Positions 6,749-58,975 of a stretch of 64,000 bases of DNA are shown here, piece after piece (the stretch's first letter is position 1; every line of letters starts with the position of its first letter). The notes beneath the pieces were generated by a model. That model was not told where the DNA came from, searched no databases, and saw nothing but the letters and a program-made list of their open reading frames with translations. The translations under genes and the position numbers were made by a program. The stretch comes from Dipteris shenzhenensis (Eukaryota), in NCBI GenBank assembly GCA_047967505.1, contig CM106538.1, one strand, 5' to 3'.

Positions 6749-6805
6749 TTAGCCCCAATGTTACTATCAAGGTCTTGTTTTGATTTGACACTAAATTTAG
6801 TAGAG

Positions 6806-7017: not shown

Positions 7018-7132
7018 TCTTTTGCTAGAGACGCTCGGTAGGTTTTGCCTAGGTTTTTCCCATCATAACCTCAAGATCTCATCTTCTTTACAAGCAAAGA
7101 TTTTCTTCTTTTGTGCTCATTTTCTGTGTAAG

Positions 7133-12065: not shown

Positions 12066-12115
12066 CCGCGGATACCATGGCTAGCAAACCCCCATGCCAA
12101 GCACGGGGATCTGCT

Positions 12116-12128
12116 GGGGGGGGAAAGA
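12116..12128 (+). other. Polypurine tract of element A
   Basis: GGGGGGGGAAAGA immediately before the LTR start TGTGACA. Confidence 0.85.
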
Positions 12129-14031
12129 TGTGACAACAAAAAATGATATCTTGTTTTGAAATCTGTGGGAGGGTTTGTGGGGCCCGCAAGGTGACAAAAG
12201 CTAGCCATGGAGACAAAGAACCAAGAAGCGTGACAGAGAAGTTGGTGGCGGGAGATGGCTCTTTGTGGCTACTCTCATTGCGGCTTGTCAATCTTTTGAT
12301 GTCGACTACTTTATTTCATGTAATCATTAATGTGGGTTTGACACTACTTAGAATAATTAATGAAAATGATTGCAAATACGATTATGAGTGGAGTGCATCA
12401 TTGTAAATACCATGGGCATGAATTATAAATACCTTGGTATAGGGATAGAATGGTTTGAGAGATATGTTATTTGCTTTGTAATTGGGAAAATAGAAATGAG
12501 GCATGTACTTTGAGTGGGCCACATGACTGCATGGCCTCCATAAGGTACTAAAATAATATGGAGAGCACATGCCAAGCACATGGACGGCATGTGGAGGAGT
12601 GTGGAAGAGTGTAAAGTCAAGAGGAATCCTTCTAGAATTCCAAGGTGGTGTATGGAGGATATTGACATATGGAAAAGAGAGGGTCCCTATGGGCTCCAAG
12701 GGGAAAGACTCTTGAATTTCTTAAATTTTAAAGAGTCATGAGGATCTTGTGATGGGACACTTGTCAAAATGTACCTAAAAGGACATTTGATGGTGACCCA
12801 TGTGCTTGTCACCAGGGGGTGAAGGAATCTACTAGCTGAAAATGTAATAAGGTGAAGGAGGGTGAGAATTGCTCTATAAAAGAGACCTCTCTCCTCCCTC
12901 TCCATCATCTGGTTCTTCCCTTCGTAATTATGCCATCACTTGTATCTAGCTTTGCCTATCTTTTCCCTTCTCCCTAGAGCATTAGGCTCTCACTTTGTAC
13001 CCCTCTTCTTGCTTTTGATGTTTTGAATAAAGTTCATGCTTCCTTTTCCTCATCCTTCTTCCATCTCCTCTCTCCTCACTCTAAAGCTTAGTGTACCCAC
13101 ATGAGTGAGTCATTTCTAAATCTGTGTTAAGGGTATTCTCTACTCCCCTAGGCAACCTCAATTTTCCATGTATCTGGGAAGCTAGTTCTCTGCTGAAGGA
13201 GATCATTGCGCTTTCCATAACTGCAGTCGGGTATGAATAGTTTTGACAGTCTTCCATAAAATGGTCATAACTTTCTACTCCGAGCTCCGTTTTGGATGAA
13301 ACTTATATCAAAATCTTTGTCTCTTCAAGATCCATCTATTGATGTATTAAGATATTTGTTCCATTTAGTAAAATAAAAGTTATTGTTGTCTGAGTGGTTG
13401 GGTCTATTGTTTGGAATAGTTTTGAGAACCTTTCGTAAAACCGTCATAACTTTCTGTTCCAACCTTTTTTTTGAATGAAATTGATATTAGAATCTTCGTC
13501 TTTTTAAGATCTATCTATTGATGTGTTCAGATATTTGTTCCATTTAGTAGAATAAAAGTTATTGTTGTCTGAGTGGTCGGGTCTGTTGTTTGGAGTAGTT
13601 TTGAGAACCTTTCGTAAAACTGTCATAACTTTCTCTTCCAAGCTCCGTTTTGAATGAAACTGATATCAGAATCTTCATCTTTTTGAGATCTATGTTTTGT
13701 CCCAACCGTCCCATTCAGCCAAATCAGCCCTATCAATTCAGGCCTTTCACATTAGTTCACATTATGTTGAGTCAAAAGATGTTCTTCCAAACAACAGCTC
13801 GCCCTTACTTTTGGGGCTAACCGATTAGCTCAAATCAATGCTTCGCGTCAGCCTTTCTTATTTCCAATGCTAGAGTACAACCTCACCTTTGACATCTATA
13901 TCTTTGTTTTTATTTGAGAAGATAGAGAGTGAGTGTCTTTTTAAGCTTCATCTAATGCCCAAATCTCTTCTCTCTTCTTCAATTTGTGGGTTGAGACGTG
14001 ACCAAAACCAAACCCCCGATTTTGTGTCACA
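12129..14031 (+). repeat. 3' LTR of element A (1903 bp)
   Basis: TGTGACA...TGTCACA terminal inverted repeat, follows the PPT, TATA-like CTATAAAA at ~12874. Confidence 0.9.
13235..13692 (+). repeat. 179-bp tandem repeat (~2.6 copies) inside the LTR
   Basis: Units start at 13235, 13414 and 13593 (ga(a/g)tagttttga...gtcataactttct...). Confidence 0.9.
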
Positions 14032-16339: not shown

Positions 16340-18444
16340 GTCTTTCAATACAAGTTGATTATACATGAAATGTGAACAAGATGGAGTGTAATTTTGTAAC
16401 TAATGGGAAACAAGAGACACAACACTAAATAATAAGGAATCTTGAGTAGCTAATTGTAGCAAAGTAGTTTCAAATGTAGCCTTCCAAACATGTTCCTACA
16501 TTTGTTATATTTTCCAAAAAACCTCCAAATATGTGCCTGTGTTTGTTATATTTTCCAAACAATATGCAAAAGAATTCCAAAAAACCTCCAAATATGTGGA
16601 GTTGAGGCCCACTTCAAGGATTTTGAATTTTTGGAAAAAATCTTTTGTAGCATGAACACTATCATTTGGGAAAAATGTTTTGCAGCATGAACACTATCAT
16701 CCAATAACTAGCATTGCTTTTTTGAAAATAGATTTGATGATGGTTCATTGGTCTTGATGTAACATTAATATATGCAATAGTCCCACATTTAAAGCCCTCA
16801 TCTAACTTCCTCTTCAATTACAATCATCTAATCCATGAGCTTATTGAGTGACAACAAAATAGAATGGTGGGCGTGATATTTTGTGTACATTTTATACATT
16901 TCTTGGAATGTAGATTGAATGCTACACTCACCATCTAATGAATTTGGATACGTTGCTTTAATTTGTGAAATTAGTCATTCCCCATTAGATCCATTTTCGA
17001 TCATAATTTAAAATAAAACAAATGACCTAAATACTTGCAAACAAAAGTTGGGAGTGACATTTACAAATAAAACCTTGATTGATATTGATAAAATGTTATG
17101 ATTTATAGAATTTAATTATTGTTATATATATTTTTTAAAATTGGCATTTTGTATGTTTATATTATAATATTCTATGATAACAATTTTGATGAGGTTGGAT
17201 AGATGCTTGGGAAAGGGTAACTTCCCTATCTATAGAACAAGATCTATAATGATGCCTTTAGAGGGGCTACAATATGATTAAGAATTGGGTCATAGATAGA
17301 ATTAAGATCTTCTTGAAAGCCAAAATGTATAATATTGAAGATATTTACACATAATAAAACATGAAGATACAAAATCTCAAGACATATTTGTTTTATAGAA
17401 TTCTTAATAAGATGAAACATTGAATATATAACAGCTAAACATACAACATAAGATTGTTCCCTTCCTTTGCTAATTTCACTACTTTTTTGACATTTTGTTG
17501 TTTGTAAGGGAGTTAAAATCTAGGTCGTTTAGAATAATTCTCACAAAAAATATTGCTATTAAGATAAGCATCAAAATTTAACATTTTAATAGTAATAAAT
17601 GTTCAAAAATATTTATGTTTATTCAAAGGATCTTAATCTACCTCTCCTTACTTTAGCCTCATTATAACATTGTAATAATATGAATTGCTACTTTTGATCT
17701 ATATTATAAAATAATTCTAACTCTTTATATCACTTTGTAATATTTCAAATGATAAGCCTATTTTTCCTATAGTCGTTAGCAATTTCAAATGATAAACATA
17801 TATTTCAAATAAATGATTGATTAATATGGAAAATATTTTAAATTACATAGTTGAGAAGAAGTTTAATTGATTGTGGGTGATAATTTATTGTTAGAAACAT
17901 ACATCATCTAAGGTAAGAATAGAATCGAATTCAGAATGGTGAACATTGAATCATAATAAAGGTGAACATGTGATTTCTTAGGCCCACCCTATGTTAAAAA
18001 GGGTTTTTAAATGTGGTGTGACGCATATAGGAAAGAGTTCATTACCTTAGTTTTAAAGAATCCTTCTTGTGGTCCACATAATATGTCAAGTAAAGAGAAT
18101 AATTGCTAGTAAATCTATAAAATGATGTACAAGGCATCATGACTCCATTGAAATAGGAATTTGTCATATTTTTTATAGGGAAAAGGTTTGTCCTTAATGA
18201 TTTATAATCTATGAAAATGAATGCAAGTTACCCAAATCTAAAAATTCTTTTATGAAGTGGGCCCATTAGATTAAACATTGAGATATGAAGTCTTTTTAAT
18301 GTAGGAAAGCTCGTGGCATTGATATTCAATATAATAAAATACCACTTAGTAGACAATCTATTCCAATAAGATCTATGAATGAATCTAAAGATGTGTGCAT
18401 GCATGCATGAAAATATACATATATGCATGTAGGTGCGTGCGTGC

Positions 18445-18709
<265 letters not shown>

Positions 18710-21149
18710 ACAAAAACATGAGCCAATGAGAAAAAACGAAATAAAAGTTCCCTTTGTCAATGAGGGGATAGTTGTGGGACATCCATTTAGCTTCCAAGGA
18801 ATACTGAAAAATAGCTTATATCTTAACACACAATTTCTATGAATGTCACTAGTGAAATTTTTTGATGGCTTGTCGCCTTCCTTTACATGACAAATCCTCC
18901 TCAATAATTGCTAGTAGCTCACAAGTCTGATGAAGGCATCATTTCTAACCATGAATACCTTGATCATAAGTAGCTTCAAGTGCCATGATATTATAAGATA
19001 AGCTAACTATAACAATTGCGCAGTCTGCATTGATTTTCTAGTAGAAATACGGGTTCATAAAAATAAATTTCGTTTGTTAATAACTAAGTTTTGATAGTAT
19101 TGAACCCACTGTGCCTTAAGTTATTTAGTAGAATGAACAATTGTATAAATTCTTGTCTAATTCGAAGACTAACAACATAAATGGATATCCACTAGTGAAT
19201 TTAAGCCTAAGGCATTACAATGTGTATTGTCAAATAGTGTTTAAAAGTGTATAATTAACTAGTGTTGAAAGAAGATACAAGGAGGGTGTGTGGTGATAGG
19301 GGGTGCCTAGAGGGACCCTTGGTAGTAGTATATGGACATAGAGGATATTCTAGTCTAAAATGGATTAATAAAAGGAAAGGCGAGTAGACATCGGGGTAAT
19401 AAAGATCTAAATCAAAAGATTCCATAGACCTCTAGTTGACCAAGCAACATATATAAGACCATTGTAAGTGAGTGAGCCCCATCCACTTCCTGTGTGTAAG
19501 GTGAAGTCACAAAGATCTACCCCATAGAGAAGCAATTCCATTTCTTTTAATGGAGGATAGTAAACAAGCTTTAACATCCCTGACAATAATTATGTTACTA
19601 CATTGTTAGTGGATGATTATTGGTGGATGTCATAGCATTGAGGCAAGGAACAAATGTGCTTGGAGTATTTGGACTCTCCATGCTAAAACAGTGTAGTGTC
19701 AACATTGTTAGATTAATAGAGAGAAAGTAACACTGTTAGTATGGGACCACAATAGTGATGTGTATTACAAGTAGGGAATATTATCTAGAATTAATTATTA
19801 CCACTGCAAATATATTGACTTTTGAAGCAAATATTCTCTAGAGTTAATTATTACCACCGTAAATGTCTTGATCTTTGAAGCAAATTGATAAATCTACTCT
19901 CAAGCTTACTTTGCAGTGTATAAGCATAGGCATAGTGTTTGTCTAATGACCTAAGGAGGTATGATCAATTTTGGCATTCAAATGAGGGCCTATTGGGATC
20001 TACATGAAGAGATTTTGTATGTGGGGGAAATGAATGACCAATTACAAAATACACTATGATGAGCCCAACATCTTCATCAAGGGGGAGGGTAGGAGATGCT
20101 GATTGGTCTGCTTGCTTAGCCATGTTAGCTTCAACGGCTCCTTCTTAGATCAATTCCTTATCTGTTCACTATGGTGTTGTGGCCTCATTTTTGCTATGGC
20201 AAGGCTGGAATTTGGGACTTCTTCATGGTCTTCATCATTTTGGCTCCCACTATTAGTAATGCTACTTGCTGAACAGATTTCTAAATCATGCTATTAGACA
20301 TTGACTGAATTTTGAAACGGCACTATTCAAGTGCACCTTATGAAAATGCAAGAGCAAATGATGATGAGGTTGAACTATTGGTCCTATGATGCCATTGTAG
20401 TTATTTTATGATGAGAGAACGTTAGCCTTTGGAAATCAAGGGAAGGAATCAAGGGTGATATTATCATTCTCTCAGCATTATCAGTTTAAGTGAAGGAGTT
20501 AATCTTGTAATTTAGTTCTTTTTGGCATTTTGAGATACATCAATTTCTAAGCACATTAGTCAGAGATTAAATGAATTCTTAAGCGGCGCTATTCAAGTGC
20601 ACACAGTATACGATAATGCAAGAGCGAATGATGAGGAGGTTGAAATATCGGTCCTATAATGGTATTGTGAGAGATATTAGTTGCTAACTAGTATAAAGTA
20701 TTTCTTGCTTGAGATGAACATTTAACTTTTTATAAAATTATTCTTTTCTTTTTCAAAAGATTAGGGCAAGTTTAATAGTGTAGAATTCCTTGGCCCAAAG
20801 AAAATTGTGGCTCACATTGAGGAAGCAAGGCTAGAGAAAGAGATACATGGGAAAATCTATTGCTCTTAAAGGGTAATGCCATATTATAGAATTTTTGGTA
20901 AAATGTACATGCATCATGCAATTGGAAGACAACATTCAAAACCTACCCAAGAAAGATTATATACTTACAACAATATCTCCAGGCAGACAAATAATGATCT
21001 TGCTTACCTCTATAAACTAATCAATGGCATGTTGGTTAGTTTTTAGGCCATTAGATTAGCTCTTATGTGGAGCTACATTTGCTATTCAAATGCACAAGAT
21101 ACATATGGATTTGAAAGGAGGCTGCACATGCCATGCCTATGATTTAGCA

Positions 21150-25372: not shown

Positions 25373-25811
25373 GGGATGGGCTACGGGGAAAGGGGCAAAA
25401 ATCGCAGGGCGACGGGCGGTAGGCAATGATTGACAGCGGAAAGGCGGGTTCCTGGTTTTGGGTGAGCCTTGTCGTGCAGTGCCGGAAAACCACAAAAGGG
25501 CGGGAATGGACGCCGGGGCGCCGCGAAACCGCCATCAGGAGAGTGGTTCCCGGTTTTGCTTCCGGAATGACCACAGGGACGCCCATTCTCTCTTCGTCTT
25601 CTTCCTTTCTTCCTTCCTTTCTTCGTCGTCGTCGTCTTCTTCTTCTTCTTCTTCTTCTTCTTTTCGCAGTTCACTGTTGCTTCTTCCGAGCTCGCCATCG
25701 CCATAGCCAGCTCCCCCCCCCCCAAAGCTTCCCTTCTCCATATCCCCCTCTTCTCCTTCCCAAGCTCCCCCCCTTCCCCTTGCTCCTTCCCCATCTCCTC
25801 CCCCATGTCTC

Positions 25812-28800
25812 ATGGAATTCTTCGCCTCTCCCCCCCCTTCCTTTGAACCCCCCGCCCCTCCCTCCTCCACCCCTCCCTCCTCCTCCTCCTCCTCCTCCCT
25901 CGTCCCCCCCCCCCTTCCCCTCCCCTTCCACCCCGAATGGCATCGCCCCAGCGACACCGGCTTGGAAGGTCTGCTTCCTTCCCCCTCCCCTCTCCTGCTC
26001 CACCTTCTCCCTTGCCTCCTGTTACCCCCAGTCTGCTTTGCTCCATTGTCGCCCATGCCAACTCCCCCTCTCAGCAAACGATCCTTCAGATGCAATCGGC
26101 TTAGCATTGATCCTAGCATTGGTCCTGCTGAAATCCGCGACTCTGCCATCCCAGCTTCGATCGACCGTGCATTTTCTCTTCCTATCACTGTACGGCTGAA
26201 TCGTGCTCTGGGTTGTTTTGCAGAGACAATGTGGAGGCTCTCTATACGGCCACAGGAGGGGGTCGACTCTGCGTACCCAGAACGCCCTGGCGAGCCCGAT
26301 TGTCCCTACTACATGCGCACTGGTCTTTGCGGGTTCGGGATCAACTGTAAATTCAATCATCCACCGAACCGCAGACTGGTGAGAAATGCAATCGAAATGT
26401 GATTGTATGTCGGCTATGGTATTTGCCAGGATTGAACCCTTGTAACGAAATTCAAAGCAGAGTTTGCACAGCAAAGCTAAAGCTAGGGTTTTCGTAACAG
26501 TGTGCACACATGAGCGTCTTGCGAGGCACGCCTCGGGAATACCAGAATCGTACTTCTTCGTCGATCGAATAGTAGGATTTTTCTAAATCGGTCCCATCCA
26601 TGGCCATTTCGATGCCTATACTGGCCTTGTGTGTGATTGATTGCAGGCGTCGTCATCGGGAACGTCCCGAAGCAGAGGTGAATACCCGGAGAGGCTTGGA
26701 CAGCCGGACTGTCAGGTGTGTGGCTGCTATGAATGTTATTTTACATACACTAATCTATGCCAAGCCTGATCACTGAGGAAGGTGCTTTCATGCAATGCCG
26801 CCTAAATTTTGTATCCGCGGTGTCTTCCAATCTAAGTAGTTTTACGAGACACGCCCGAAGGCGAAGTCAGCCACTAAAATACTTAAGCTTAACCCCTCCT
26901 CTTCTCTTCTTAGTATTATCTGAAAACCGGTACCTGCAAGTTCGGAGCAACCTGTAAATACCATCATCCACGAGAAAAAGCTGGACTGGCAGGGAGAGCT
27001 CAATTGAATGTTCTCAATCTGCCTTTGCGGCCGGTAAGATGCCCGAAACCGATCCCGATACATGCAAGCATACACGTGTTTAGCAGTTAAACAGTTGTTA
27101 GATTCGTCTTGTCAACGCATTATGCATGCGGAAGCAGTTTTGTGTGGTATTTTACTTGAAAATCTTTTGCCACACAATTCCGTTCAGCAGAAACAGTTAT
27201 CCTTTTCAAAACCTGGGTGGAGCAGCTCGCCAGGGATGTTTATTGTCTGCAAGGAGCATTGCCAGGTTACCATGGACTTGCGTTAAGCAGGAAAAACAGT
27301 GCACTAAGTGTGTTAAGGAAGAGGGGGTACCGCATGCCAGTCTTGTGGTCAAAGAGTGGATGTAGCAGCTAGGGAGCATCTGTGTGGAATTTTACTGTTG
27401 AATTTGTGCAAGGAGCATTGCAAGATTACCTAGATTTGTATTAATCAGGGGAAAGAGTGCAATGAAAAGTGTTAGATTGTTCTAGATTTATCTTCTCAAG
27501 AATGGGGACTAGCAGCTAGCAAGTAATTGAGTGTAAGATTGATCAGGATTTATCTTCTCAAAGGGTGGGTGTAGCAGCAAGGGAAAATGTGTTGGGAATG
27601 TTAGTGTTGAATTGGTTCAAGGTGCTTTGCAAGATTGAGAGCATGGAGGGTTTGATATGGTGGCAGGGCGAGAAGGATTGTGCATATTACATGCGAACAG
27701 GGAATTGCAAGTATGGTGTGACATGCAAGTTCAATCATCCACAACCGGTCTCCATGCCCCCTTCCCCTATTTTTCCAGGATCAGGATCCGGTTCAGCTCC
27801 TGCCCCTCAGGCCTACCCTGCCGGATTGCCAGCTTGGACCATGGCCAGACCTCCCTACTACCCGCCCCCACGCCTCGCTGGACCCTCCAACTTTGCTCCT
27901 GTTTTTCTTCCCTCTCCTCAAAGTGTCCTCTCTGTACCGGGTTGGAGCCCTTACCAAGTAAGTTCCTCACCCTCTTCAAGGGTTTATTGCCGGTCAACTC
28001 GAGGATTAAACTCTTTGAATTTTGTCCTCTGCTGTATTCAGAAGATGCCACCCTTTCTCTCCTGCTTTTGCTTTGACCTGGCTGTTGATCCAGCAAATGG
28101 TCTCGGCATTGGATCCACTGATTCCAGATTGTGATGCTGAGGGTTGCAAAGCACATATTTGGCTTGATTTGCCACTTTTGATTGGATTTGAATATTGCAA
28201 AGCACATGGGTATTTGTCTATGTTTTTCTATGTTTTCTCACGCCTAAAAGGCATCCCCAACCTCCCTGCTGCATGGATGCTGGATTGTCAATTTCCTGCT
28301 CAGAATTTTACATTATGCTTGTTGGGAGACCCGATCAAACAAATTTTCCTGAAATTTTTATGGTTGTCCAGAGTTCTCTCGTAGCACAAGAGGGGCAGCA
28401 ACAAGCACTGCCATACATGTATAGTGCAGCGCCACCGCATGATCCTGTGGCCATGGGCTTGCATGCGGCCTTCCCTCCCTTCATGCAAGGCTCTTCTATG
28501 AGGCTACCGTCACCTTCTTCACCCTCCACAACTGCACCTCAAGAGGCTCTCTATCCTGAGAGGCCTGGGCAACCCGAATGCCATTACTACATGAGAACTG
28601 GGGAATGCAGGTTCGGCTCACAATGCAGGTTTCATCATCCCAGAGACAGAAATATTCCCGCACAAGCTAGTCTTCTGAGTCCTATGGGTCTTCCCTTGCG
28701 GCCGGTATGAGGTTTCTCTTGCAAGTCTTTGGCCTTGCTACTGGATCGGCTTTGTCTTACGTTCAATTTTGGTCAATCAATTGGCACTAGATCGTCTTTC

Positions 28801-32879: not shown

Positions 32880-34132
32880 TATCGTTCCTTGCCTTCTTGC
32901 CACCCTCCTCTACTTTCCTATTGCTATGTGGAAGCTTGCAGGAGAGCTTCTATTTGCTTGTGGCTTCGAAACGGAGGAAGGGAATCTCGTTTTTCTTGTT
33001 GCACTAGTGATTTCCAGCTTGCTGCCTACTTTCCAGAGCTTCTTTCTTGCTCGTTTCTAGCTTAGGAAGGGTTTTCTTTGTCTGTAGTTGCTGTGTGTGG
33101 AGTCTCCTACTGAATGAATTTAGTATTATTTTTAGCCAGTTTTAAGCCTAGAACTTGAATTTTGATGCAGAGACTAAGGCAATATTCCTCTTGTGTTCAT
33201 TGCCATCCTTATGGGATACCTTTCATATAGTTGTCAGTAACTCTGCACTTGGTGGAGTATTGAAGTTTGATGATGTTGTGGGTAGCTTGTTGGTCGAGGA
33301 GATTAGACGGAAGTCTATGGATGGCAACAAAAAGGATACAGCCTTAAATGTGCAAAGGGACAGATCACAGTTTAGGGGGAAGTCTCAAGAAAGAGGGAAG
33401 TCTCGTACCAAATCTAGGGCAGAGAACATTGAGTGTTACTATTGTGGCAAGAAGGACCACATGAAAAAGGATTGCAAAAGGATAAGAAAAATAATGCAAA
33501 TTAGGGTGCAAATAAGAAGAAAGAGAGTCCAAGGGAGGACAAAGGAAAAGTGAAGATCGAGGAGATCGATGCAGTTACTGATAATAGTGACAATGGCATT
33601 CTTTTCATGTCTAGTCTATCTACAGAGTTACTTACCACTTCAGATGATGCATATTCTTAGGATTGGATTTTGGATTCCGGTTCTTCATTCCATGTTACTC
33701 CCTATAGGGAATGGATCTTCACTTATGACAGTGGAAAGACAGGTAGTGTGCATCTTGGAGATAACTATGCATGTGACGTAGTGGGAGCAGGTGACAAAGT
33801 TTTCTTTTGCAAATGGGTTTGCATTTGGTTTGAAAAATGTGAGACGTGCCTAAACTGACCAAGAGTCTCATTTCTGCGGATCAGCTAGATGGATCAGCTA
33901 GATGATGCTAGTTTTTAGACCACCTTTGGCTTTCAGAGTTAGAAAATTCAGAAGGGCTCTATGGTTTTGGAAAGAGGTTCCAAGTGTGGGACATTGTATC
34001 CTTTACTTGTACCAAGGGTGTCTAATCATATTGTTGCAATAAGCGACTAGCCAAGTACTTCTTTGTGGCATTGTCAGTTGGGACACATGAGCTAGAATGG
34101 AATGAAACTCTTATGTCGTTTGGGTTATGTAC

Positions 34133-35117
34133 TGCTATGGATAAATTTGACCAAAGTAAAAAGGCATAAATTTGAGTGTGTGTTTGTATGTGTGGCAATA
34201 GTATAATCAAATATGGTGTGCATAGGGCCCAGGGCTAAGGTGGTAGGGCATAACCATGTGCCACCCTTTCACGTAAGAGGACCCATAAGGTGTGATGTAC
34301 ATAATCCATCATAGTAATATTATAAAATGTAAGGTGGCATGGCTCCTCCATGTGTCACCCTCCACCTAAGCTGCATTTAGTGAGATATGGCCCAAAGTCC
34401 ATGGGAGAAGTAATATAAAATAGGTGGAGATGGATATTATATTGGGTTATTCCCTCCATATAGGATAGGCCCATGTGGGGGAGGTATAGAAGGTTTAAGA
34501 GTGCAAGTTAAATAATGGGGAAAGTAGGATGAGGTGGCAAGACTCCTTGTGCTAACCCTCCACTTGTCCTCCTAGATGTTTGAACATATTATAAAATTGG
34601 GAAGAGACCAAGGGAGTCTCATAGACTTGGGATATGGGAGTTGATATATGTGGAAAAATGTGACCAAACGTTATCGCACACAATTGAGAGTGCGAACCGC
34701 CTAGCCCACATGGAAGACTCTTCCACACACACCATGCATGTGGGAGGATGCATTTATTGGAAGAGACCCCCTCTCTTGGCTATAAAAGGAGTGGGCTATT
34801 CCTTGATGGGACACGCTCATTCTTGTAAAGCCACCTAGCTAGTACTTTGATTTCCCCTTCCCTTCTTTTCAAATAAAGCATGGTCCTCTTTCGTTGATGT
34901 CTCCATCTTTACATTCCTCCTCCGATCATGTACATGCTTCTCTTCCCCCACTCCCTTTCCCCTTGTGCCATAGTCTCCCTCTTCATTCCCTCGCCTTCTA
35001 ATCCCTTTTCCCCTCCCATGATAATGTTCGCTCTCACGTTCTCCTTTCGTCTATGGCCCTTGAGCGTCGCGATGCTTAGTGTCTAACCTCTTGTCCTGAT
35101 TTCTTTTCTGGCTAACA
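34133..35117 (+). repeat. 5' LTR of element B
   Basis: TGCTATGG...GCTAACA; matches 41984-42957. Confidence 0.95.
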
Positions 35118-35121
35118 GAAA

Positions 35122-35139
35122 TGGTGTGGTTGCTGGGAT
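35122..35139 (+). other. PBS of element B, complementary to plant tRNA-His
   Basis: TGGTGTGGTTGCTGGGAT versus TGGTGTGGCTGCTGGGAT, the reverse complement of the plant tRNA-His(GUG) 3' end as I recall it. Confidence 0.7.
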
Positions 35140-36494
35140 CGAAATCTCCACGGCTAGTGGTGTAAAATCTGTTACTCCTATGACTGGGTGTGGCTCTGCG
35201 GCCTCTTCTGTGCACAGTTCTCTACTTTTGGACCTCCAAACTGTGTGCCTTCCCTGTCTCTACGGCTACAAAACCTCCTTGCTTCTGCACTTTCAGTTTG
35301 TTTGCTTTCTGCTTGTGGTTCCTACGTGTATTTTGGTTAGCGAATCTTCTGCTCGTACTGATCGCATTTGTAGAACTGTAAGATCTGTGCTTCTACGTGC
35401 GTATTCATGCATCCACTGTGTATATGCGCGTGCATCGCAGACAGATCGTGACAGTTTTTTGGGCTCCTGCATCTTCTGGTCATGGACAGTTTTTCTGGGT
35501 TTCTGTAAAACTGTCACAGACCCCACATTCCCTCTCTCTCCTCTTTCTCTTTCTCTTCTCCTTCTCCTCTTCTCTCCTCTCTTTTTATTAAAGAGTAGGA
35601 TTTGGACCCAAGACCTCCCCCTTCACAAAGGAAGACTTATCATTGGGCCAATAAGTAGGAAGTGATGAAAATGTAATGATTTTTGCTTATATATTGAAAT
35701 CTTGGGAACTGTAACTCTATAACCGTGGGGAGTTTACTCTTGCTGTAAAAAGAAAAAGTATTTTATTTCATGTGCTCTATTCACATCTCCTAATAGATTA
35801 TCGATTCGGAACTTTTCCAAGTTCACTTCATGGACGCACGCCACATGAGGAGGGTGGATATTTATGTCACTTCTCGACGAGTTTAAGGATTTGGTGCTTG
35901 GTCCTCCGCTCATTACGGCTACCAATTAGCGAGATCTCTTTCCTGATCTTCATGTCGGCCTTCAATGGTTGATTGCCCACTGCATTGTTCAAGGAGACGA
36001 CGGGTGGGATGATACACCATGGATGATTCAAGGTGAAGAACTAGTGATACGCTCGGAGAACTTTGATTTTATTTTACTCATTGTGTGGTGATCAAGCTAC
36101 TTGCTGCTTCGAAGGTAATTAGAAGGGTGTCCTTCTTCAAAGGGTGGGATACTCCCTAAGCTTGGGGGGAGATTTGGTGCATCTGCCTATTAATTCTTGT
36201 GGATAAGCTCGTCTTGAATGGTTTATTCTCAATCTCACTACAAAGGTTTCTAGGCCTCGCTCGGCTATGGTTGGTAATGTTTCGACCAAGGAATCCATTT
36301 GTACCTAATCAACCTTTTGTGCCTCATTTCGAGCTTCAAGTTGTAATTCTTTTTAGTCTAAAGATAAACTATCAACAAAGGATTATAAGTTTATTTGGTG
36401 CTGAACGTTTGGCTCAAGTATTGAATTCTTCCCACCCTCTCCTTCTACCTATCTTGGACTAAACTTGGGATGTCCGAATTTTAGTCTTGGTGTG

Positions 36495-37227
36495 ATGACA
36501 TCTTGGATCCTTCAATTCGATGGAGCTTACAAATCTTCGACCAAGGCTGCTGGCGTGGGTGTAAAGCTCACTTCACCAGGTGGTGAGGAGTATTGTTATA
36601 GCAAGTCTGCACTTGCAAGTACTTGCAACCAAGCTGAGTACTCGGCACTCATTTTTGGGCTACAAAAGGCACAAGAACATCACGTCAAGCAACTTGAGGT
36701 GCAAGGAGATTCTTAACTAATGTGTGAACAAGTTAGTGGAAGGTGGAAGGTACGGAGCAAAGGCTTAGTTCCACGACATCAACAAGCATTGGAACTGTGC
36801 CAATAATTTGAAGAGGTAAAAATTCAGCATATCCCTCGAGCTCAAAATATAGTCGCTGATTTCTTGGCACGTGAAGCTTGTACTTCAATCACGCATGACG
36901 CGAGTGGAAGCACCACCCCAACAAAGCTGCAAGCCACGAAGGAGGGTGATCATTTGTAAGAAATGCAAAGGTTGTGGTCATCATGAAACTAAGTGTTGAT
37001 ATGAGTTTACCGACTTCGAAAGATCATCAAAAAGGTCCTCAAGGACATTGCTCAAAAGAAGGATGCCAGACCACACAACCCTTGAAGAAATAGTATGGCG
37101 ATTACAAGAACTGGAAGAAGCTGAAGGTGATGTGCAAGCTCTCCAACTGTTGACATTTGTCATGGCATTCTTGTTTGCCTTGATGAACAACCTCATGCAA
37201 CGCCGTGTCTCTAACCCTCGCTTGTAA
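36495..37227 (+). pseudogene. Extra ORF upstream of gag: archaeal-type RNase H1 plus CCHC zinc knuckle
   Basis: MTSWILQFDGA..TCNQAEYSALIFGL..VQGDS*L..KIQHIPRAQNIVADFLAREA, then after a frameshift CKKCKGCGHHETKC (36955-36996) and a helical/hydrophobic tail. Confidence 0.85.
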
Positions 37228-37454
37228 AGATGGATGCGATATCATGAGGGTTGGTCCTTTTAAGATTGTCTATGAGCAATTCTATGCTAAAGATTCTTCC
37301 CGTATAGTATTTCACAATACACCAGTCATACCCTACCTTGGCTATGTGTGCTTTGTGGATGTATCTTCACCTGATTTTCAGTTCAAGCTTCCTCTTTCCA
37401 TTGTTTGCCCATAGATAAGCCTAATTTCGTCTCTCTCTTTTCCATTTTCCAAGC

Positions 37455-49894: not shown

Positions 49895-52800
49895 TACATG
49901 ATCCTTGGTAAGTACTCAATTTATGTATAGCGTTTTGAACTTTTAAAAAATGGGACCTAGACTAATAGTTTGTTGTTTGTGTAACTACCTAAACTCAAAT
50001 TATGTAGACACTAAGATTCAAAGGGATTAAACAAAAGCATAAAACATATTATAAAGTTCTCTTCTTTATTATAAATCTACAAATTGATAAGTAATAAAAA
50101 TCTTCTTAGTACCTCATTTAACATCCAAAAGAAAAAGAAAAATCTCTCATGAATTTCATATCCATACTTCATTTACACATCCAAAAGAATAGATAAAAAT
50201 ATTATACCACAAAAATTTATCAAAACTAAAGAGAGCTCTATATAGCGTGTTGAAGAGTTATTTTAATTGAGCTATATAGCATAGTAAAATCTCTACATCC
50301 TTGAAACTAAGTACATCACATTGTGCCATGACTCAAACTTTTTGAATTTAAATGAGTCCATGTACGATATCTCTTATCATATCTTTCCTATCTGGTTTCT
50401 TGCTATCTCTAGAGTAATTTTTGAGACTACTCTCAATCTTCTTTAGCTTCAAATGTGTACTTTTTAGAGAAAGTTAGATATCAGGTATCGTATGTACACC
50501 CATATATCTTATAAGAATCATCTCCATATTCTTCTTTGAAATATCAACCACCTAATTTTATAATATTAAATTAAAAGTTCAAAAGATATTAATAAATTCA
50601 ATGTAAATGATTTATACCAATAGTAAATTCAAAGGTATTATTAAAAAAAAAAAATTATGTACTTCTTCGCTCTTGCTTGAAGAGGTAGCAATCTCCAAGT
50701 TTACATCTTGAAATCTTTTCTTTAAAATTTTAATTCAAATTAAAAAAAAGCATCAAAATAAACTTATAAACATCTTGAATCATAGAAAAGAAAATTCTAG
50801 CACAATAAGAATACTTGCATCCTTTTCTTTAGACTTTCTCACTCCTTTGCATAGTATTTTGTTCCAAATGACCTTTCATATTTTTACTCACCTATGAAAT
50901 GATATACAATAAGTGGTATGAATGCCATAATAAAGAATTATGAAAAAGTATAGAACCACCCATATGACTTGATGTGCAATACAAAATAAAGGTTTTTGCA
51001 GAGTATTGCATAAATGATAACTTGTACCTTTCACTTTCTTTCACATTTTCTAAAAATTTTCATTTGTAAAATCATTCAAATTTGATACTGGATACTAAAA
51101 ATATAACAAAATCAAATTATAAAACTTGAATTAGAAACATAGCTAAAAAGAAACCAATTCGAATTTGACATTAGATTTTAAAAACACAAGAGATTCAAAT
51201 TTTAGAACCTAAATCATAATCATATCTAAAAAGAAAATACAATTCTTACCTTCTCTTGGTTTGTGATGTACACTCCTTCCTCAACTTCACACAAGTCTTT
51301 ATCATATGTTGTAACTCAAGAAATGTTATACAAGGATTCACCTCCTATGGTCTTCGCCATAAGAATATTTTAAATAAAATATTTAAAATGGTTGAATTGT
51401 TAATGATAATATTTCAAAATATTCGAATAGTTTACAATCCTATTTTAAAATAGTTAAATTGTTACCAATAATACTTCTAAATAGACTTAACTAAGGATTA
51501 AAAAATTTATACCTCAATGGATTTATAATATAGCAATCTTTGAAAACTATATACATCTATACAACAAACTAGATGATTGAAATGAAGCAAAAGTCTCATT
51601 CTAAAATTAAAAAAAAAGAATATCTTATATATCAAATGCTTGAATAACTCAGATGATAGACAAGCTTGTGTCTTCTTTAAAAGAGGTCAAATCTTCAATA
51701 GACTGTATGCTAGAATTAAATTATCTAACTAAGAAGTCACACTTATTAGATTAAGCTTTAATAAAATAAATATATATTGTAACTAAACTAGATATTAGTA
51801 AAAATATTAATATAATCATAGATTCTCTAAAAATTGAATTTTTTGGAGACTTATCTAGACAAGGAGTCTATGCTTCAAGTTCAATGTTTCTCTACAAAGC
51901 TTCAATTAGACATCAAAATTTTTATTTAACTCTTATATATGCTTTCAAAATTTAGAATAATGATATATATATTTGTTACATACTTGAAGTGATAAAACAT
52001 AATCTGTGTTTTCTTCTTTGGAAATAGTACTCACTTCCTCAAGAGATTAGCTCATTTATTTGAGCTTCACTCATAGACCTCTATTAAACACAATAGCATA
52101 AGATGATTAGCTCATACCTATATTGTAATTTCAAAGATACAAGTTTTACAAGATGTTAAATAATTTAAAGCTCAATTTACTTTGTCCATGAGACTCCTTC
52201 TCTTGGTGTAATTTCTACTTAATTTCTTTGAGGAGATCCACAATAAATATCTTGCTCTCTCCAATTGTAGTCGACTCCAATAAAATTAAAAGGCACAATC
52301 TCATGATGATGCTCATGAATAATACCTTTGATAATTCTTTTTACTCTTTTTTATGTCGTAGATCACTAAAAATCTCTACTCCAAATCACTGTTGTACATA
52401 CAGTAGCAATCTAGCCATAGAGAATGTTGATCCTTGAAGTACTTTTCCAAGACCTCCTTTCCATATAGCTCGCTCTTATCTCTACCACTCATCTTAGGTG
52501 CCCTAATCACCTCATCATAATAAATAGGTGTAAATATTGCACTAGAGACTAAAACAAGAGAAACTTGAGGTTTGTCTTGCAAGTAATGCTAGTCCATATT
52601 TTCTTTAGAGGACCCATCTTTTGTTGCATCTCTAAAATTATATGTGTAATTTCATAGGTAAGTGCATAGCATAAGTGCATAACATAGAAAGATAAATATG
52701 CAAAACTTTGAACATAAAAATGCATAGCATAGTATAGATCTCCTAAATTCAGCCCATAACATAGTATCAATATCAGTGCATAGCATAAAAAGGCAAACCT

Positions 52801-55800
52801 ACAAAAGTCTAAACATAAGAATGCATAACATAGTACAAATCTCATAAATTCAGCTCCCACCTTCTCCCACCTGAGACCCTTTTTTCCCATTCCACATCTG
52901 TTTTTGCCCTCCCATTACATATGACTACCTTCTCGCATCCCTTTCTCTATGCTCTAAATTCAGCCACAACCTAGTTCTCCCAACCATGCATCATTGCACA
53001 TATGCTACTAGCACACTCATGCATGGTTGGGATATGGGGGTGGTGGCTAAGTTTAAAGGATTGAATGAAAAGATTGGAGAAGGGGCCGGTAGCTGAACTT
53101 AGGGGATCGAAGAAGGGATATGGAATGGGATGGGAGGAATGGAATCGAGATATAGAATGGGAGAAAAGGGTCTTAGATGGAAGAAATGGGGGTGGGAGTT
53201 TGAATTTATGAGAGTTATACTATCTTATGCATTTATACATTTGGACTTTTCTATGTTTGTGTTTCTATGTTATGCATTTGTACTATGTTTAGACTTTTCT
53301 ATGTTTTTGTTTCTATGTTATGCATTTGTACTATGCTTAGACTTTTCATTGTTTACATTTTAATGTTATGCACTTATGTTTTTACTATGTTATGGATTGA
53401 ATTTAGGTGATTTGTACTATTTTGTGTATTTTTATATTCAAAATTTTGTATGTTTACCCTTCTATGTTATGCACTTAATGATATTACACATATTGTTTTA
53501 ACATAGGCAAAGTGGAGCATAGAGATGCAACATAATATTCGTCCTCGAAAAGAGATAAGGAGCATTCTTACTTGCAAAATAGATCCCCAAGTTTCTCTCG
53601 TTCCAAACTTAGGTGCAATATTTGCACCCACTTACGATGAGGTGTTTAGACTACCTAAGATGCATAGTAGAGATAAAAGAAAACTATATGCAAAAGAGTT
53701 CTTGAAAAAGTAGTTCAAGATCAACATTCTTCATTGCTAGATAGCTATCATAGTTTCTGAAAGTGGTTTGAAGGAGTAGAGATTCTTATCTATGACATAA
53801 AAAGGAGTAACAAGAAAGTATTAAAGGCATTATTGATGAACACCATCATGGGATTGTGACTTTGAAATTATTGGAATTGAGTACAGTGGAGAGAGAAGGA
53901 TATTTATTTGTGGTGGATATCCTCAAAGTAAATGAAGAGAAATTACACTAAGTAAAGGAGTCTTATGGACAAAGTAAGTTGACCTTTAAATTACTTAACA
54001 TTTTGTAAAACTTATATATATTCAAAATCGTAATATAGATATGAGCTAATTATTATATGCTATTGTATTTCACAGGAGTCTATGAGTAAAGTTAAAAAAA
54101 TGAGCCAATATCTTGAGGAAGGAGTGAGGAAGTGAACATTACTTCTAAAGAAGAAAACATATTTTATGTTCTCACTTTAATTAAGAATATTTTCTAATTA
54201 TTTTAGAATTTGAATTGATAGATAAGATTTGAATATAAGTTTTAATATCTAGAAAAACATTGCGCTTGAATCATACACTCCTTGTATAAATGAGTCTTTA
54301 AATTATCCAATTTCAGAGAAGGTATGATCACACTATACTTATAATGATTCTTTAATTCAATTACGATATATATTTATTTGGAAAAAAAAATATAATAAGT
54401 GTGACTTCCTACTTAAATTATTAAATTCTTTAGTAAAGTCTATGAGAGATTCAACTTCTTTTAGAGGAGACTACTATGAACAAGGAATCCAATCATTTGA
54501 TGTCATTCAATCTTTTGAGATGTAACTTATTCTTTATTTTAAAAAATTTAAATTAGACTTTGTCTTCATTTCAATCATGTAGTCTTTTCTATATATGGAT
54601 AAGTTCATGCTAGCTTTAGATACCTTTAAAAGATTGTAATATTATAGCTACAATGAGGTATACATTTTAAAATCTTAAGTGGTCTTTTATTTTGAAATAT
54701 TTTTGTTAACCATTCAACTATTTGAAAATAGGATTGTAAACCATTAGGCTATTTTGAAATATTGCTATTAATTATTCAACTATTTATAAAGGATTCTTAT
54801 GGTGATGAAGACCATGTAGATGTGAATTATTCCACAACATTTTTTGAGTCACTACATGGCAAAGACATGTGTGAGGTCAGGAAAGGAGTGTACATTGCAA
54901 ATACTTGATTATGATTCAAGTTTTTAAAATTTAATTTGTTGTATTTCTAAAAGATAATGTCAAATTTCAATTGGTCTTTTTTAGATATGATTATGTTTCA
55001 AGTTTCTTAATTTAATTTTTATGATCCACTAGCAAATTTGAATAATTTTACAAATAAAAACTCTAGAAAAAGTGAAAGGTACAAGTTATCATTTATGCAA
55101 TGCTCTTAAAAAGCCTTTGTTTTGTATTATACATTAGGTATTATTTATGTTTTATACTTTAACATAATTCTTTCTTATTACACTAATACCACTTACTTTG
55201 TATTATTTCATGGGTGAGTGAAACTATGAAAAATCATTTATAATAAGAGAGTGTGCTAAGGAGCGAGAAGGTCCAAAGAAAATGTTATAAGGTATTCTTA
55301 CTATTGCAATTTTTTTTTCTATGATTCAAGGTGTTTATAACTCGATTTTAATTTCATTCTTTTTATTTAAATTATAATTTATAAGACCTTTAAGATGTAA
55401 ACCTGGACATGGCTACCACTTCAAGAGAGAGTAAAGAAGTATGTGATATTTTTTAATTAAAATAATGCATCAGTAATGAGGTTAATAGCATAAATTATTT
55501 ACTTTAAAATTTATTAATATCTCATAACTAGTGTAAATAATTTACTTTGAAGTTTAGTAATATATCGTAACTTTTTGTTTTCTTATCATGGCATTAGGAG
55601 AATATGGAGACGATTCTTTTAAAATATATTTTAGAGGAGAATATGGAGACGATTCTCTTAAAATATATGGGTATACATAAGGTTCATGATAAGTACTTTT
55701 CTATGAAAAGTACATATTTGAAGTTGAAGAAAAGTGAGAGTAGTACAAAAACTACTCTAGAGACAACAAGAAACCAGATGGTAAAGATATGATAAGAGAT

Positions 55801-56198
55801 ATTGTACATTGTCTCCTTGAAAATAAAAACTAGAGTCGTGGCACAATCTGAAGTACTTAGTTTAGAGGATGTAGAGATTTTACTATGAACATATAAATCA
55901 GTTCAAATATCTCTTCAAACATGTTATATAGAGCTTTTTAGCCTCTATTTAACTCATAATTTAAGTGATAGAAACTTTTATTTTCTTTTTGGATGTGTAA
56001 ATGAAGCATGAAGATGCTTTTATAAAATCTTATAATTTTCCTTTTGGATGTTTAAATGAAGTATAAAGAAGAATTATAAATTATCAATTTGTAGAAATAT
56101 AAAAGAAGAGAACTTATAAAATCTTTTCTTAGTGTCTACAAACAATTACCTATTGCCAAAGTGAAACATAAAATTGAGTAGTTACCAAGGATCATGTG
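49895..56198. repeat. ~6.3-kb imperfect inverted repeat (foldback-like), arms ~3.1 kb
   Basis: Termini tacatgatccttggtaa / ttaccaaggatcatgtg; 33-bp perfect anchor 51005-51037 vs 55069-55101; mirrored ORFs 52549-52890(-) vs 53130-53363(+) and 52376-52582(-) vs 53525-53713(+); central 14-bp stem 52978-52991/53019-53032. Confidence 0.92.
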
Positions 56199-56559
56199 AA
56201 GAAAGAATGTGCTTCATTTTTTATCATTATAGTACTTAACAAAATGATAACGAGTTTTAGAATTCTATATTGCTTTTTCTTTATATAGGAAAAAAGAGGA
56301 TTCTCTATATCATTTACTAGTTTCTTTTTATAGAAATGCCATATAGATTAAAGGAGGTGGTTAGTTAGCCTTAGTACAAAAGGGACCTGATTACAAAATT
56401 TGATCGCACAAGACCTATGTTACACACAGTGGAACATGCACCTACCCAAAGAAAACTTGGAACTTGCCTTTATCAGAGCATGACTTATTAGAGGGTTCTT
56501 GAAGAACTAGATCCAAGTGAAATCGTTGAGATACATGGTCATCCTTGTCAAAATAACTG

Positions 56560-57480
56560 ACACCTTGAACCCGGTGAGTATCTTATGCTAAAACAATGTC
56601 TTATTTTGGGACTTTCAGATCACTAAGAAAACTTCCATCTGTATATATTGCTAGCTTTTTGCTAATGTAAATGGTAATCTAAAGGAGTCCTACAATATCA
56701 TAGTCCACCAAGACCCAAGTGAGAAGCAGTTCATCAGCCCCACTTTGCATACTGCTACCTCCATCTTATGCCATACCTCCTTGGTTACTTCACAATTCTA
56801 GAACTGATGCCTAACAAATTTCGACCAACTTCTTATAGAGTGGACAAACTAGATTGGACCTGTACTCTGTTTGCCAATTTCTCCATATCGGCAGCAGCAG
56901 CTACATGTACATTTCCTTATCTAGGAGGACCCTCAAATTTTCCTTGGCTGAAGCCATTTCAATTTTCATTGAACCAAGTTCACCACTAAGCTCAGCTATG
57001 CCTAAGGCCCCATTTCTTGTTAAGATCCCCAAAATTAGCATCCCCTTCTGAAAACTGTTTGTAGATCACCTTGGGAAATATGTTGTGGAGCGGGGTTTAC
57101 CAAGCCACCATTGATTAGACTTCTAATCGACTACCAACACATAGTTCAACGGCCAAGACTCTAAAGTCTAATGTAGCACTACCTACAACAAGTCTGCCTC
57201 TCCATCTATTAGGGTGTAGTTGGTCCATAACTGGTCCAGTGTGAGTCAGTGCACCATGTATTTCAAAGATCTATCCGTGTCTTAATTCCTTTTGTGCACA
57301 AACTCCTTTATTTATGGATGCCATGTAGGGCAAATGGTTCATCACCCTTGGCTAGGACTTTACTCCTCGAGAGGCACTCAAGTAGATTGACATCATGCCT
57401 TAACCCTTTCTAGCTTTTTTAGGTAAATTGACCGACGCAGATTTTTAAGGCTTATATCAATCCTACCACAATATTTGAGC
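56560..57480 (-). pseudogene. Probable LINE ORF2 C-terminal (zf-RVT) remnant
   Basis: NLVCPL..VRHQF*NCEVTKEVW and VI*KSQNKTLF resemble the C..C..HLFW-C..VW and IWK-RN..F motifs. Confidence 0.45.
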
Positions 57481-57801
57481 CCATAATTTTGATTGGTAAG
57501 CGTACATACAACATATGAGACTTAGTGATACCCTTCCATGTACCTTCACCTCTACTCCTAGCCTTCTTGATGCTGATGTCCATGGGGCTTGGTCCTCGAA
57601 GAGATGAGGGTCCACTAACCTAGCACTGCCATGTTCCTTAGGCTAATGTCTAGTAGCCCTAATCCTCCTTGAGACTTTATGATCTTCATAGGTTCCCATG
57701 GTATATACTGCATCTTCCTTCTCTTATCTCCCTCCGCCTAGAGAAATCCTTTCCTCTTTAAGCCAATTGTTGCATGTGGAGCCTTATCCAATTTTTAGAG
57801 G

Positions 57802-58975
57802 TTAGTTTTTAGCCTTGCGTTGAACCCAGGCATGTTTATACCCAGTCTATTAAAGGGGTGCAATGCCCCCCTACTACAATCACAGGGGGTTCCAAAGGGA
57901 GATGATAGTAGCTATTTAGGCTCCCCTTATAGGGGTTTGGAGGAAGCCCTTGCAAAGAAAAAAATACATGAAAATTAATGCATAAGTTGTGTGGTAAAAA
58001 ATGTAAAGTAATATGTAGCTCACATAGCATGAGATCATTGGATATACTACTTATATCTTGTATCTTCTCGCTAGTTGGATAAGAAAAATGGAAGACTAGT
58101 TGCTTATTCGTGGATGTAGACAACACTAGGTGAACCATGTATATCAGTGTCTCTCTTTCTCTTCTATTTTGTGTGCTTTTTGTATTGTGTATTTTATGCT
58201 TTGAATTTTGATTCTCGCATTGTTTCTTTGTTATCATGTCACTTCTAACATTTGGTATCAAAGAGTTTGTTTGAGCAACATTCATTGAAGAAGGTTCTTC
58301 GTTCAAACGAGAGCAATAATGGAAGAAGGCAAGTTCAAAATTGAGAACCTCAATGGTAAGAACTACTAACATTGAAAGATACAGATTAAGTTAAATATAC
58401 TAAAAGAACTATTTCTTGCCATTGGGTGGGACAACAAAGAAGCCTCAGTGTAATTTAGGTGAAAATAGGGAGGTTCTTAACAGAAAGGCACTGGAAACAA
58501 TACGTATGTGTTTAGTAGCATCAATAAATTTCAACGTCCTTAATCAAAAGACAACAAAGGACTTGATGACCACATTGGATACATTGAATGAAAAACCAAG
58601 AGCTTCTAACAAAGTATTTATTATGAGGCATTTATTTAATATAAAGATGTTAGAAGGTGGGTGTATAGCTGATCATTTGAATCAGTTCAATACGAATACA
58701 AGACAACTAAGGTTGTAGGACTAAGCTTCGATGATGAGAAATTTGAGCTCTCCTGAGATTTTGTGCTCATTGCCACAAAGTTGGGACTGCTTGTTGGTCA
58801 TGGCTGTGAGCAACTTTGTTTTTGGATCAAACAGTCTAAATTTTGATGATGTTGGTGTTCTCCTTAGCAAGGAAATGTGACAAAAAAGCACAAGTGAAAC
58901 ATCAAGTAATGCCTTGATTCTTAAGAATAGGAGAAGACAAAGGGAGAGAGGAGAGAGCCCATGGAACCCTACCGC
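57802..58975 (+). mobile_element. Ty1/copia 5' fragment (partial LTR, PBS, decayed gag), copy 2
   Basis: LTR end at 58250, PBS at 58253, gag from 58319: KALETIRMCL..KTTKDLM..ASNKVFIMRHLFNIKM..DHLNQFN..LCSLPQSW. Confidence 0.88.

Follow-up and report, generated by a model that had tools for sequence, protein, structure and literature searches.

Structure and decay of the palindromic locus

The locus described here lies in a 64,000-nt stretch of Dipteris shenzhenensis DNA (assembly GCA_047967505.1, contig CM106538.1). This whole stretch was analysed and is referred to below as the window, and all positions are positions in it. The 6.3-kb element consists of two long arms around a short centre, the left arm being the reverse complement of the right arm along its full length (Table 1). 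It is AT-rich and distinct from its surroundings in base composition, and its left arm contains 12 CpG dinucleotides against 59 expected.

Table 1. Features of the locus and its flanks, in window coordinates.
Feature	Position	Strand	Description and basis
Copia fragment A	49287–49896	+	part of the LTR, primer-binding-like site and first ~30 gag codons; stops at the palindrome
Left arm of the quasi-palindrome	49895–52991	.	3097 nt, 28% GC, non-coding; colinear reverse-complement match to the right arm
Longest perfect arm-to-arm match	51005–51037	.	33 nt; partner at 55069–55101; perfect-run list
Central stem (perfect, 14 bp), left half	52978–52991	.	pairs with 53019–53032; sequence reading and perfect-run list
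Asymmetric 27-nt centre (loop)	52992–53018	.	sequence reading; not self-complementary
Right arm of the quasi-palindrome	53019–56198	.	3180 nt, 28% GC, non-coding
48-nt tandem array, right arm only	53220–53372	.	3.2 copies; TRF period 48, 86% matches, score 201
AT-rich right flank	56199–56350	.	26–27% GC; may be where the duplicated unit runs on untruncated
Copia fragment B	57806–58800	+	LTR, PBS and gag start as in fragment A, running on into gag

When the left arm was compared by BLASTN with the reverse-complemented right arm, a single colinear hit was obtained (71.7% identity over 2948 columns, 288 of them gap columns; E = 0), which confirms the full-length inverted correspondence proposed in an earlier sequence-only reading of this DNA. 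In a global MAFFT alignment of 3387 columns (2240 matches, 677 mismatches and 470 gap columns), the arms agree at 76.8% of the 2917 aligned pairs, within the 70–80% that had been estimated by eye, and at 66.1% of all columns. The differences comprise 366 transitions and 311 transversions (ts/tv 1.18; arm-to-arm K2P 0.281) together with 60 indels, and they are diffuse and even, identity ranging from 0.56 to 0.86 per 100-column bin. The inverted duplication is thus real, but old and worn.

The element has no coding capacity. A Pfam search of all six frames at E ≤ 1 returned no family and no transposase domain, in agreement with the sequence-only reading, in which no transposase motif was recognisable, and each frame carries 153–165 stops. 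Only 11 of the 60 indels are multiples of three nucleotides, and codon-phase bias was found in none of the five ungapped blocks of at least 90 nt. Rfam, searched over the whole window, and Pfam, searched in the minus frames of both the right flank and 45.5–49.3 kb, gave nothing in or adjoining the element. An origin as an organelle-derived insert was considered and dropped, there being no gene remnant of any kind; likewise, a solo-LTR pair had nothing in its favour beyond trivial dinucleotides.

At the centre, both the 27-nt loop and the perfect 14-bp stem that had been claimed are present. The perfect 14-nt run, however, ranks only 12th in the arm alignment and is not rare, so that the centre is weak evidence for a snap-back event. 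Nine perfect runs of at least 16 nt occur between the arms; one of them is terminal, and the longest is internal. Among the arm-specific indels, the reported ~48-bp triplication corresponds to the TRF array of the right arm, opposite which the left arm shows a 96-column gap (facing 53277–53372 in the MAFFT alignment). TRF returned 11 rows over 49000–58000, all of them small and each, apart from the 48-nt array, spanning at most 98 nt; both arms are otherwise unique sequence with a few small tandem arrays. Outside the element, the remaining 57.7 kb of the window yielded no second copy of an arm, either by BLASTN or with an nhmmer arm profile (0 hits, E ≤ 10). Neither a 24-nt terminus pattern nor a 25-nt core taken from the internal stretch that is best conserved had any hit in metagenome contigs.

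Termini and flanking sequences

Both ends of the element read (T/C)ACATGATCCTTGGTAA, in agreement with the matching termini described previously. The first 28 alignment columns are identical at 26 positions (16 + 10 perfectly matching bases), a degree of conservation reached by 1.8% of the 28-column windows of the arm alignment and, for 32 columns, by 6.4%; internal stretches, such as the 33-nt run inside the arms, equal or beat it. The hexamers abutting the element, AAGAAC and AAGAAA, match at five of six positions. With zero offset such a match was seen in 0.56% of 20,000 random position pairs, and when small offsets were allowed a TSD-like match appeared at 147 of 1000 random position pairs, the hits of the element being no better.

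Beyond AAGAA, no exact duplication of 2–11 bp around the element fits. An 8-bp duplication model was set aside, the 8-mer with one mismatch giving asymmetric ends, as was a TA duplication model after the flanks had been scanned for duplications. Plant transposon superfamilies differ in TSD length: 8 bp in hAT, 9–11 bp in Mutator, 3 bp in CACTA, 3 bp (TWA) in PIF and TA in Tc1/mariner. The termini, read for this comparison as (T/C)ACATGATCC, and the candidate duplication correspond to the typical terminal motif and TSD length of none of hAT, Mutator, CACTA, PIF/Harbinger or Tc1/mariner.

The element sits in a nest of broken retroelement fragments, two of which are copia 5' fragments sharing 90.0% identity over 612 columns (49287–49896 and 57806–58411; K2P 0.101). 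Fragment B, which continues into a Retrotran_gag_2 domain (about 58428–58799, E 9.8e-8), served as an uninterrupted reference for the left junction. Copia homology ends at 49896 (58411 in fragment B), so placing the junction to within 2 bp, and fragment A stops where fragment B runs on into Retrotran_gag_2; the left end does cut a copia gag, as had been stated. No continuation of the broken gag was found in the right flank, which means that there is no clean insertion with a TSD. The two hexamers are present as described, but as a TSD of that insertion they fail, the interrupted copia gag not resuming rightward.

Base composition differs between the two sides. GC content is 0.265–0.27 in windows covering 56100–56399, rises to 0.36–0.44 further right, and is 0.345–0.37 directly left of the element; low GC thus persists for ~150 bp beyond the right end. 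The right flank (56199–56350) matches neither copia nor the remaining window, and against the element it gave chance-level hits only (BLASTN, word size 7; E 0.57). As a relative local clock, the distances are 0.28 for the arms, 0.10 for the copia fragments and about 0.05 for gypsy LTR pairs.

Origin of the palindrome

On balance, we lean towards an ancient inverted duplication, a quasi-palindrome that has decayed neutrally. The duplicated unit was most likely AT-rich, non-coding DNA of a land-plant genome, 3.1 kb or more in length. The sequence-only reading had offered an old head-to-head duplication as one of two options, and the K2P of 0.28, the transition/transversion ratio, the small share of in-frame indels and the missing coding signal all fit it. 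Fold-back would be the most likely mechanism, and we infer both it and the later truncation to have proceeded as follows. A strand that had broken or stalled would have folded onto itself at a short inverted repeat, of which the stem and the asymmetric loop are the present form, and would next have copied its own template, giving two arms that were identical at first. Neutral drift would afterwards have separated the arms by about 0.28 substitutions per site and by 60 indels, with small tandem arrays expanding as well. What is now the left end would be a later rearrangement junction with the copia 5' fragment, truncating the left arm, and not a transposon terminus; the sharp right end would then be merely the point at which homology to the truncated left arm runs out. 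No present function is indicated.

The layout of the centre, where a short and perfect inverted repeat encloses a spacer that is not palindromic, is as expected for snap-back priming, a mechanism that has been reviewed (PMC7999016). That the left arm was simply truncated at the later copia junction is suggested by the AT-rich DNA that extends about 150 bp past the right end. The composition of the two flanks (26–27% GC on the right vs 35–37% GC in copia on the left) fits a unit that was longer rightward and cut on the left, although this is a soft argument. Counting against truncation, a random cut would not be expected within so well-matched a patch (top 1.8% of 28-column windows). The 5/6 hexamer match, rare at random without offset (0.56%), also counts against the duplication that we favour. 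With regard to age, the arm divergence per lineage (about 0.14) exceeds the entire distance between the copia fragments (0.101), and therefore the palindrome, if born perfect, would predate the copia fragment that it abuts; the difference is only 1.4-fold and the comparison presumes equal rates in AT-rich and in copia DNA.

Four other explanations were weighed. Chimeric long reads produce palindromes with short loops, the very shape seen here, and their arms are near-identical; in contrast, 677 of the 2917 aligned sites differ between the arms of this element, which are also set apart by 60 indels, and a 23% difference makes an assembly foldback artefact scarcely credible. A possible but unlikely origin would be a pair of copies from a single non-autonomous family, of repeats or of transposons, that stand head-to-head on opposite strands. 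The 23% difference would then measure the divergence of the family and not age, and the outer and inner ends would be true family termini. Such an arrangement would account for both arms stopping at the same base at their outer and inner ends, and would remove the chronological conflict with the copia fragment; the region is, besides, a nest of retroelement fragments, and a large proportion of the long inverted repeats (LIRs) of rice consists of adjacent similar transposons on complementary strands, as LIRBase reports (PMC8728187). Two independent insertions 27 nt apart and in opposite orientation would be needed, however, and no TSD was found within ±6 nt of the ends of either unit. Moreover, neither BLASTN nor nhmmer (E ≤ 10) turned up a third copy, whole or partial, elsewhere in the window (57.7 kb), and the single unit shows no recognisable element features, with no Pfam hit and no BLASTN match in inverted orientation of one end to the other.

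It is improbable, in our view, that the element is a foldback-like non-autonomous DNA transposon, consisting almost wholly of two 3.1-kb inverted arms, that inserted into a copia gag and depends for its mobility on an unknown transposase acting in trans, with a deletion in the flank having afterwards taken away the remaining copia. The well-matched termini, the agreement of the abutting hexamers, a left junction in known sequence precise to within 2 bp and the distinct base composition speak for such an insertion. The target, on the other hand, does not resume after the right end, so that a second, exactly placed rearrangement must be assumed. TSD-like matches with small offsets are common at random, a single one of the nine long perfect runs is terminal, the termini and a 6-bp duplication fit none of the plant superfamilies named above, and there is neither a transposase nor a second copy within the window. 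Foldback elements, exemplified by Drosophila FB and Galileo, Arabidopsis FARE and nematode Tm1, have composite inverted repeats with several domains and tandem sub-repeats (PMC3169594), whereas the arms of this element are essentially unique sequence. An undescribed giant foldback-like family of a non-flowering land plant, with unique ~3.1-kb arms, (T/C)ACATGATCCTTGGTAA termini, a 6-bp duplication, a copia-gag insertion and a flank deletion, is for us a similarly doubtful proposition. The giant-TIR DNA element that the sequence-only reading had put forward consequently finds no support at this locus: the broken copia gag is not taken up again beyond the right end, internal runs rival the termini, the arms are not sub-repeat arrays and the window holds no second copy.

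Whatever its origin, the locus might work today as a long hairpin-RNA gene feeding small interfering RNAs, which we regard as a rather remote prospect. Its central 1400 nt are predicted to fold into a single long imperfect hairpin (MFE −546.8 kcal/mol), so the structure would be physically possible, and hairpin-derived small RNAs are known to arise from long inverted repeats (PMC8728187). The duplex would nevertheless be poor, with only two Watson-Crick perfect stretches of at least 21 bp (55 bp in all), or 10–11 when G:U pairs are counted; the arm match falls short of the 80% match and 10% indel limits of LIRBase. The arms resemble no possible target gene (no Pfam hit), and the substitution pattern bears no sign of maintained pairing.

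Relation to known inverted repeats

Long inverted repeats abound in plants, which is in keeping with the reading favoured here: LIRBase counts 1,731,978 of them in 139 plant genomes. It requires arms longer than 400 nt, a loop of at most 100 kb, a match rate of 80% or more and indels not exceeding 10% (PMC8728187). The arms and the loop of the element lie within the length limits. Its 76.8% of matching aligned pairs and its 470 gaps in 3387 columns (13.9%) lie outside the other two, as judged from the MAFFT alignment, and the 71.7% given by BLASTN is likewise too low. Like the LIRs of that catalogue, the element has two long inverted arms and a short loop and is capable of forming a long hairpin, and it is likewise non-genic or repeat-derived, as these often are; unlike them, it falls under the match limits, and would be an older and more decayed example.

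The locus also resembles fold-back palindromes that arise de novo at short inverted repeats, after a break or in the course of replication (PMC7999016): it is a large inverted duplication, its centre holds a short inverted repeat with a spacer that is asymmetric, and the end of one arm would be set by a secondary junction. Those cases are recent, near-perfect and mostly from yeast and tumour cells, whereas the element is germline-fixed, comes from a plant and is ~23% diverged, and the fold-back mechanism is here, unlike there, one that we infer.

With foldback-type transposons, the element shares a construction in which nearly its whole length is two inverted arms (3097 + 3180 nt around 27 nt at the centre), a lack of coding capacity in the copy described here, and termini that are short and well matched. 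It differs from them in that its 3.1-kb arms are mostly unique sequence rather than arrays of short sub-repeats (PMC3169594), and in having no verifiable TSD with the target continuing beyond it, no transposase and no family copy in the window.

Taken together, the element is an ordinary kind of feature for plant genomes, and nothing found shows a new jumping gene. As it stands it matters little, being one more decayed LIR in a class that is counted in millions. Only were copies with the same ends to recur genome-wide would it represent a new transposon family with unusually long arms of unique sequence. Two aspects may interest annotators of this genome: a palindrome of 6 kb, with no more than 27 nt as its spacer, has lasted long enough for about a quarter of the identity between its arms to be lost, and the distances given above allow the surrounding retroelement nest to be dated in relative terms.

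Structure and composition of the palindrome

As an observation, the palindrome noted at 49895-56198 from the sequence alone is confirmed. A repeat finder returns 67 inverted pairs inside 48000-58000, the 25 longest of which are all centred near 53005. The left arm aligns with the reverse-complemented right arm in a single colinear BLASTN match (71.7% over 2948 columns, 288 gap columns, E = 0). Global alignment with MAFFT gives 3387 columns with 2240 matches, 677 mismatches (366 transitions and 311 transversions) and 470 gap columns, 76.8% of the aligned pairs being identical, and thereby bears out the claim of diverged, reverse-complementary arms. The centre (52992-53018) is a non-palindromic stretch of 27 nt flanked by perfect 14-bp complements, as the loop and stem had been described, and the triplication of about 48 bp reported in the right arm corresponds to a tandem array found by TRF (see the table). 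The arms contain a few short tandem arrays and are otherwise unique sequence. Since they differ at 23% of sites, an assembly artefact in the form of a foldback chimera is excluded.

The GC content is 25-31% across most of the palindrome, versus about 40% in the surroundings; its central 300 nt are GC-richer and strand-skewed. With X in place of stops, its six frames have no Pfam match at E <= 1; there are 153-165 stops per frame, and no open stretch is longer than 121 codons. Of the 60 indels specific to one arm, only 11 have a length divisible by three, and mismatches show codon-phase bias in none of the five ungapped arm blocks of 90 nt or more. Rfam yields zero matches at gathering thresholds in the whole window. 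In the remaining 57.7 kb, BLASTN detects no further copy or fragment of an arm, and an nhmmer profile of both arms has no hit at E <= 10; metagenome contigs scanned for two exact patterns from the palindrome likewise return zero matches.

Features of the window and K2P distances between paired sequences
Feature	Position	Strand	K2P	Sites	Details
Palindrome arms (left / right)	49895-52991 / 53019-56198		0.281	2917	
Tandem array in right arm	53220-53372				TRF; 48-nt unit, 3.2 copies
Copia fragments, copy A / copy B	49287-49896 / 57806-58411		0.101	606	
Ty3/gypsy-type element	34131-42957				~1-kb LTRs; long pol/gag frames 37.7-41.5 kb
Its LTR pair	34131-35117 / 41982-42957		0.046	974	
Copia-type pol remnant	43095-44954	+			SH3_retrovirus; RVT_2, E 2.9e-30; integrase core below Pfam cut-off
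Second gypsy-like element	6800-14031				gag, protease, 598-codon pol frame 9829-11625
Its flanking repeat pair	6806-7017 / 13820-14031		0.054	212	
CCCH zinc-finger gene	25700-28710	+			multi-exon; one exon searched in protein database
Long compound microsatellites	46300-47900 and 18230-18815				(TA/TG/CA)n + (CT)n type

Ends of the palindrome and junctions with copia-type DNA

The termini are well matched, yet not uniquely so. Of the first 28 columns of the arm alignment 26 match, and 1.8% of 28-column windows are equally good, a share that rises to 6.4% when terminal columns are compared at 32-column width. The longest perfect run between the arms is 33 nt (51005-51037), followed by runs of 22, 20, 20, 18 and 17 nt and three of 16 nt, one of these last being the terminal run. 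To the right, a GC content of 26-27% persists for about 150 bp beyond the end of homology; to the left, the copia flank has 35-37%. A palindrome truncated in one arm always seems sharp-ended on both sides because homology ends with the shorter arm; the symmetric ends are therefore no evidence of a transposon.

The left flank (copy A) shares 90% identity over 612 columns with a second copia fragment to the right of the palindrome (copy B), and both carry an LTR end, a primer-binding-like site and the beginning of a copia gag. Copy B extends into a Retrotran_gag_2 match (E 9.8e-8) and is therefore an uninterrupted reference for the left junction. It reads AAGAAC-TA followed by the gag continuation, where copy A reads AAGAAC-TA followed by the palindrome, in agreement with the proposal that the left end cuts a copia gag. 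The termini and flanking hexamers (AAGAAC, left; AAGAAA, right) are, on inspection, as first described, but the hexamers cannot be read as the target-site duplication left by an insertion into this copia. From 56199 onward the right flank matches neither the continuation of copy B nor the rest of the window, and Pfam finds nothing there on either strand; the hexamers are therefore not trailed by target DNA as such a duplication would be. Abutting hexamers matching at 5/6 positions occur in 0.56% of 20,000 random position pairs, and some match resembling a target-site duplication in 147 of 1000 random pairs once the scan admits offsets of at most 6 nt and lengths from 5 to 11. The two copia fragments form a 610-bp direct repeat that brackets the palindrome together with 1.6 kb of other DNA; it may stem from a tandem duplication, a patch duplication or two insertions.

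Neighbouring elements and relative ages

Remains of retroelements abound in the window, which is nuclear DNA of a plant. The Ty3/gypsy-type element is the youngest-looking, and may have inserted into the copia-type pol remnant, which lies directly after its 3' LTR. The second gypsy-like element has a 212-bp direct repeat on both sides (94.8%), and part of one microsatellite (47106-47349) is 86% identical to 4417-4660. The best protein matches to the CCCH exon are merely 61-66% identical at coverage of 90% or more, the named ones including Sphagnum, ferns and conifers; because they are this distant, Dipteris shenzhenensis and its near relatives appear to be missing from the protein collection.

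Provided that the arms began as identical copies, each accounts for about 0.14 of the divergence, which exceeds the entire distance between the copia fragments by a modest margin, assuming equal rates in palindrome and copia DNA. The palindrome would consequently predate the abutting copia fragment, and the left junction would be later. Alternatively, the arms may already have been unlike on arrival at the locus. Flowering-plant rates are about 0.7-1.3 x 10^-8 per site per year, and several-fold lower in some other lineages; under such rates, we take the arm distance to represent roughly 10-20 million years or more.

Origin of the palindrome

We consider it fairly likely that the palindrome is an old inverted duplication with decayed arms. 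A strand would probably have snapped back on a short inverted repeat and copied its own template, a route for de novo palindromes according to a review (PMC7999016). Neutral decay of both arms would have followed, and a later rearrangement would have shortened the left arm and placed the copia fragment next to it. The sequence-only reading is supported in part: of the two origins it offered, the old head-to-head duplication fits, and the giant-TIR element is not supported at this locus, where target continuity is broken.

Two copies of a single repeat family, one on each strand, would account for the coincident arm ends and dissolve the age conflict with copia, and according to the LIRBase paper (PMC8728187) long inverted repeats in rice often arise in this way; however, it is an unlikely origin here, requiring two insertions 27 nt apart, with no duplication at the ends of either arm taken singly and no third copy nearby. 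More doubtful still is the boldest reading, a non-autonomous transposon of a giant foldback-like family. In its favour are the matched termini, the hexamer pair and the precision of the left junction, but target continuity fails, the palindrome holds no transposase and has no second copy in the window, and its termini are not known to fit any plant transposon superfamily. Among the defining features of foldback transposons that were tested, the palindrome lacks two, sub-repeated arms (a defining trait in PMC3169594) and a verifiable target duplication. A working hairpin-RNA locus, which would be compatible with any of these origins, is improbable: the central 1400 nt are predicted to fold at -546.8 kcal/mol, a value without shuffle control at this length, but stretches of perfect Watson-Crick pairing that are at least 21 bp long number only two (10-11 counting G:U).

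The palindrome behaves as, and most probably is, a quasi-palindrome that arose by inverted duplication. LIRBase (PMC8728187) counts 1,731,978 long inverted repeats in 139 plant genomes, for arms longer than 400 nt and limits of 80% or more match and 10% or fewer indels; the palindrome falls just short of these limits, and is thus an ordinary feature, an older member of a common class.
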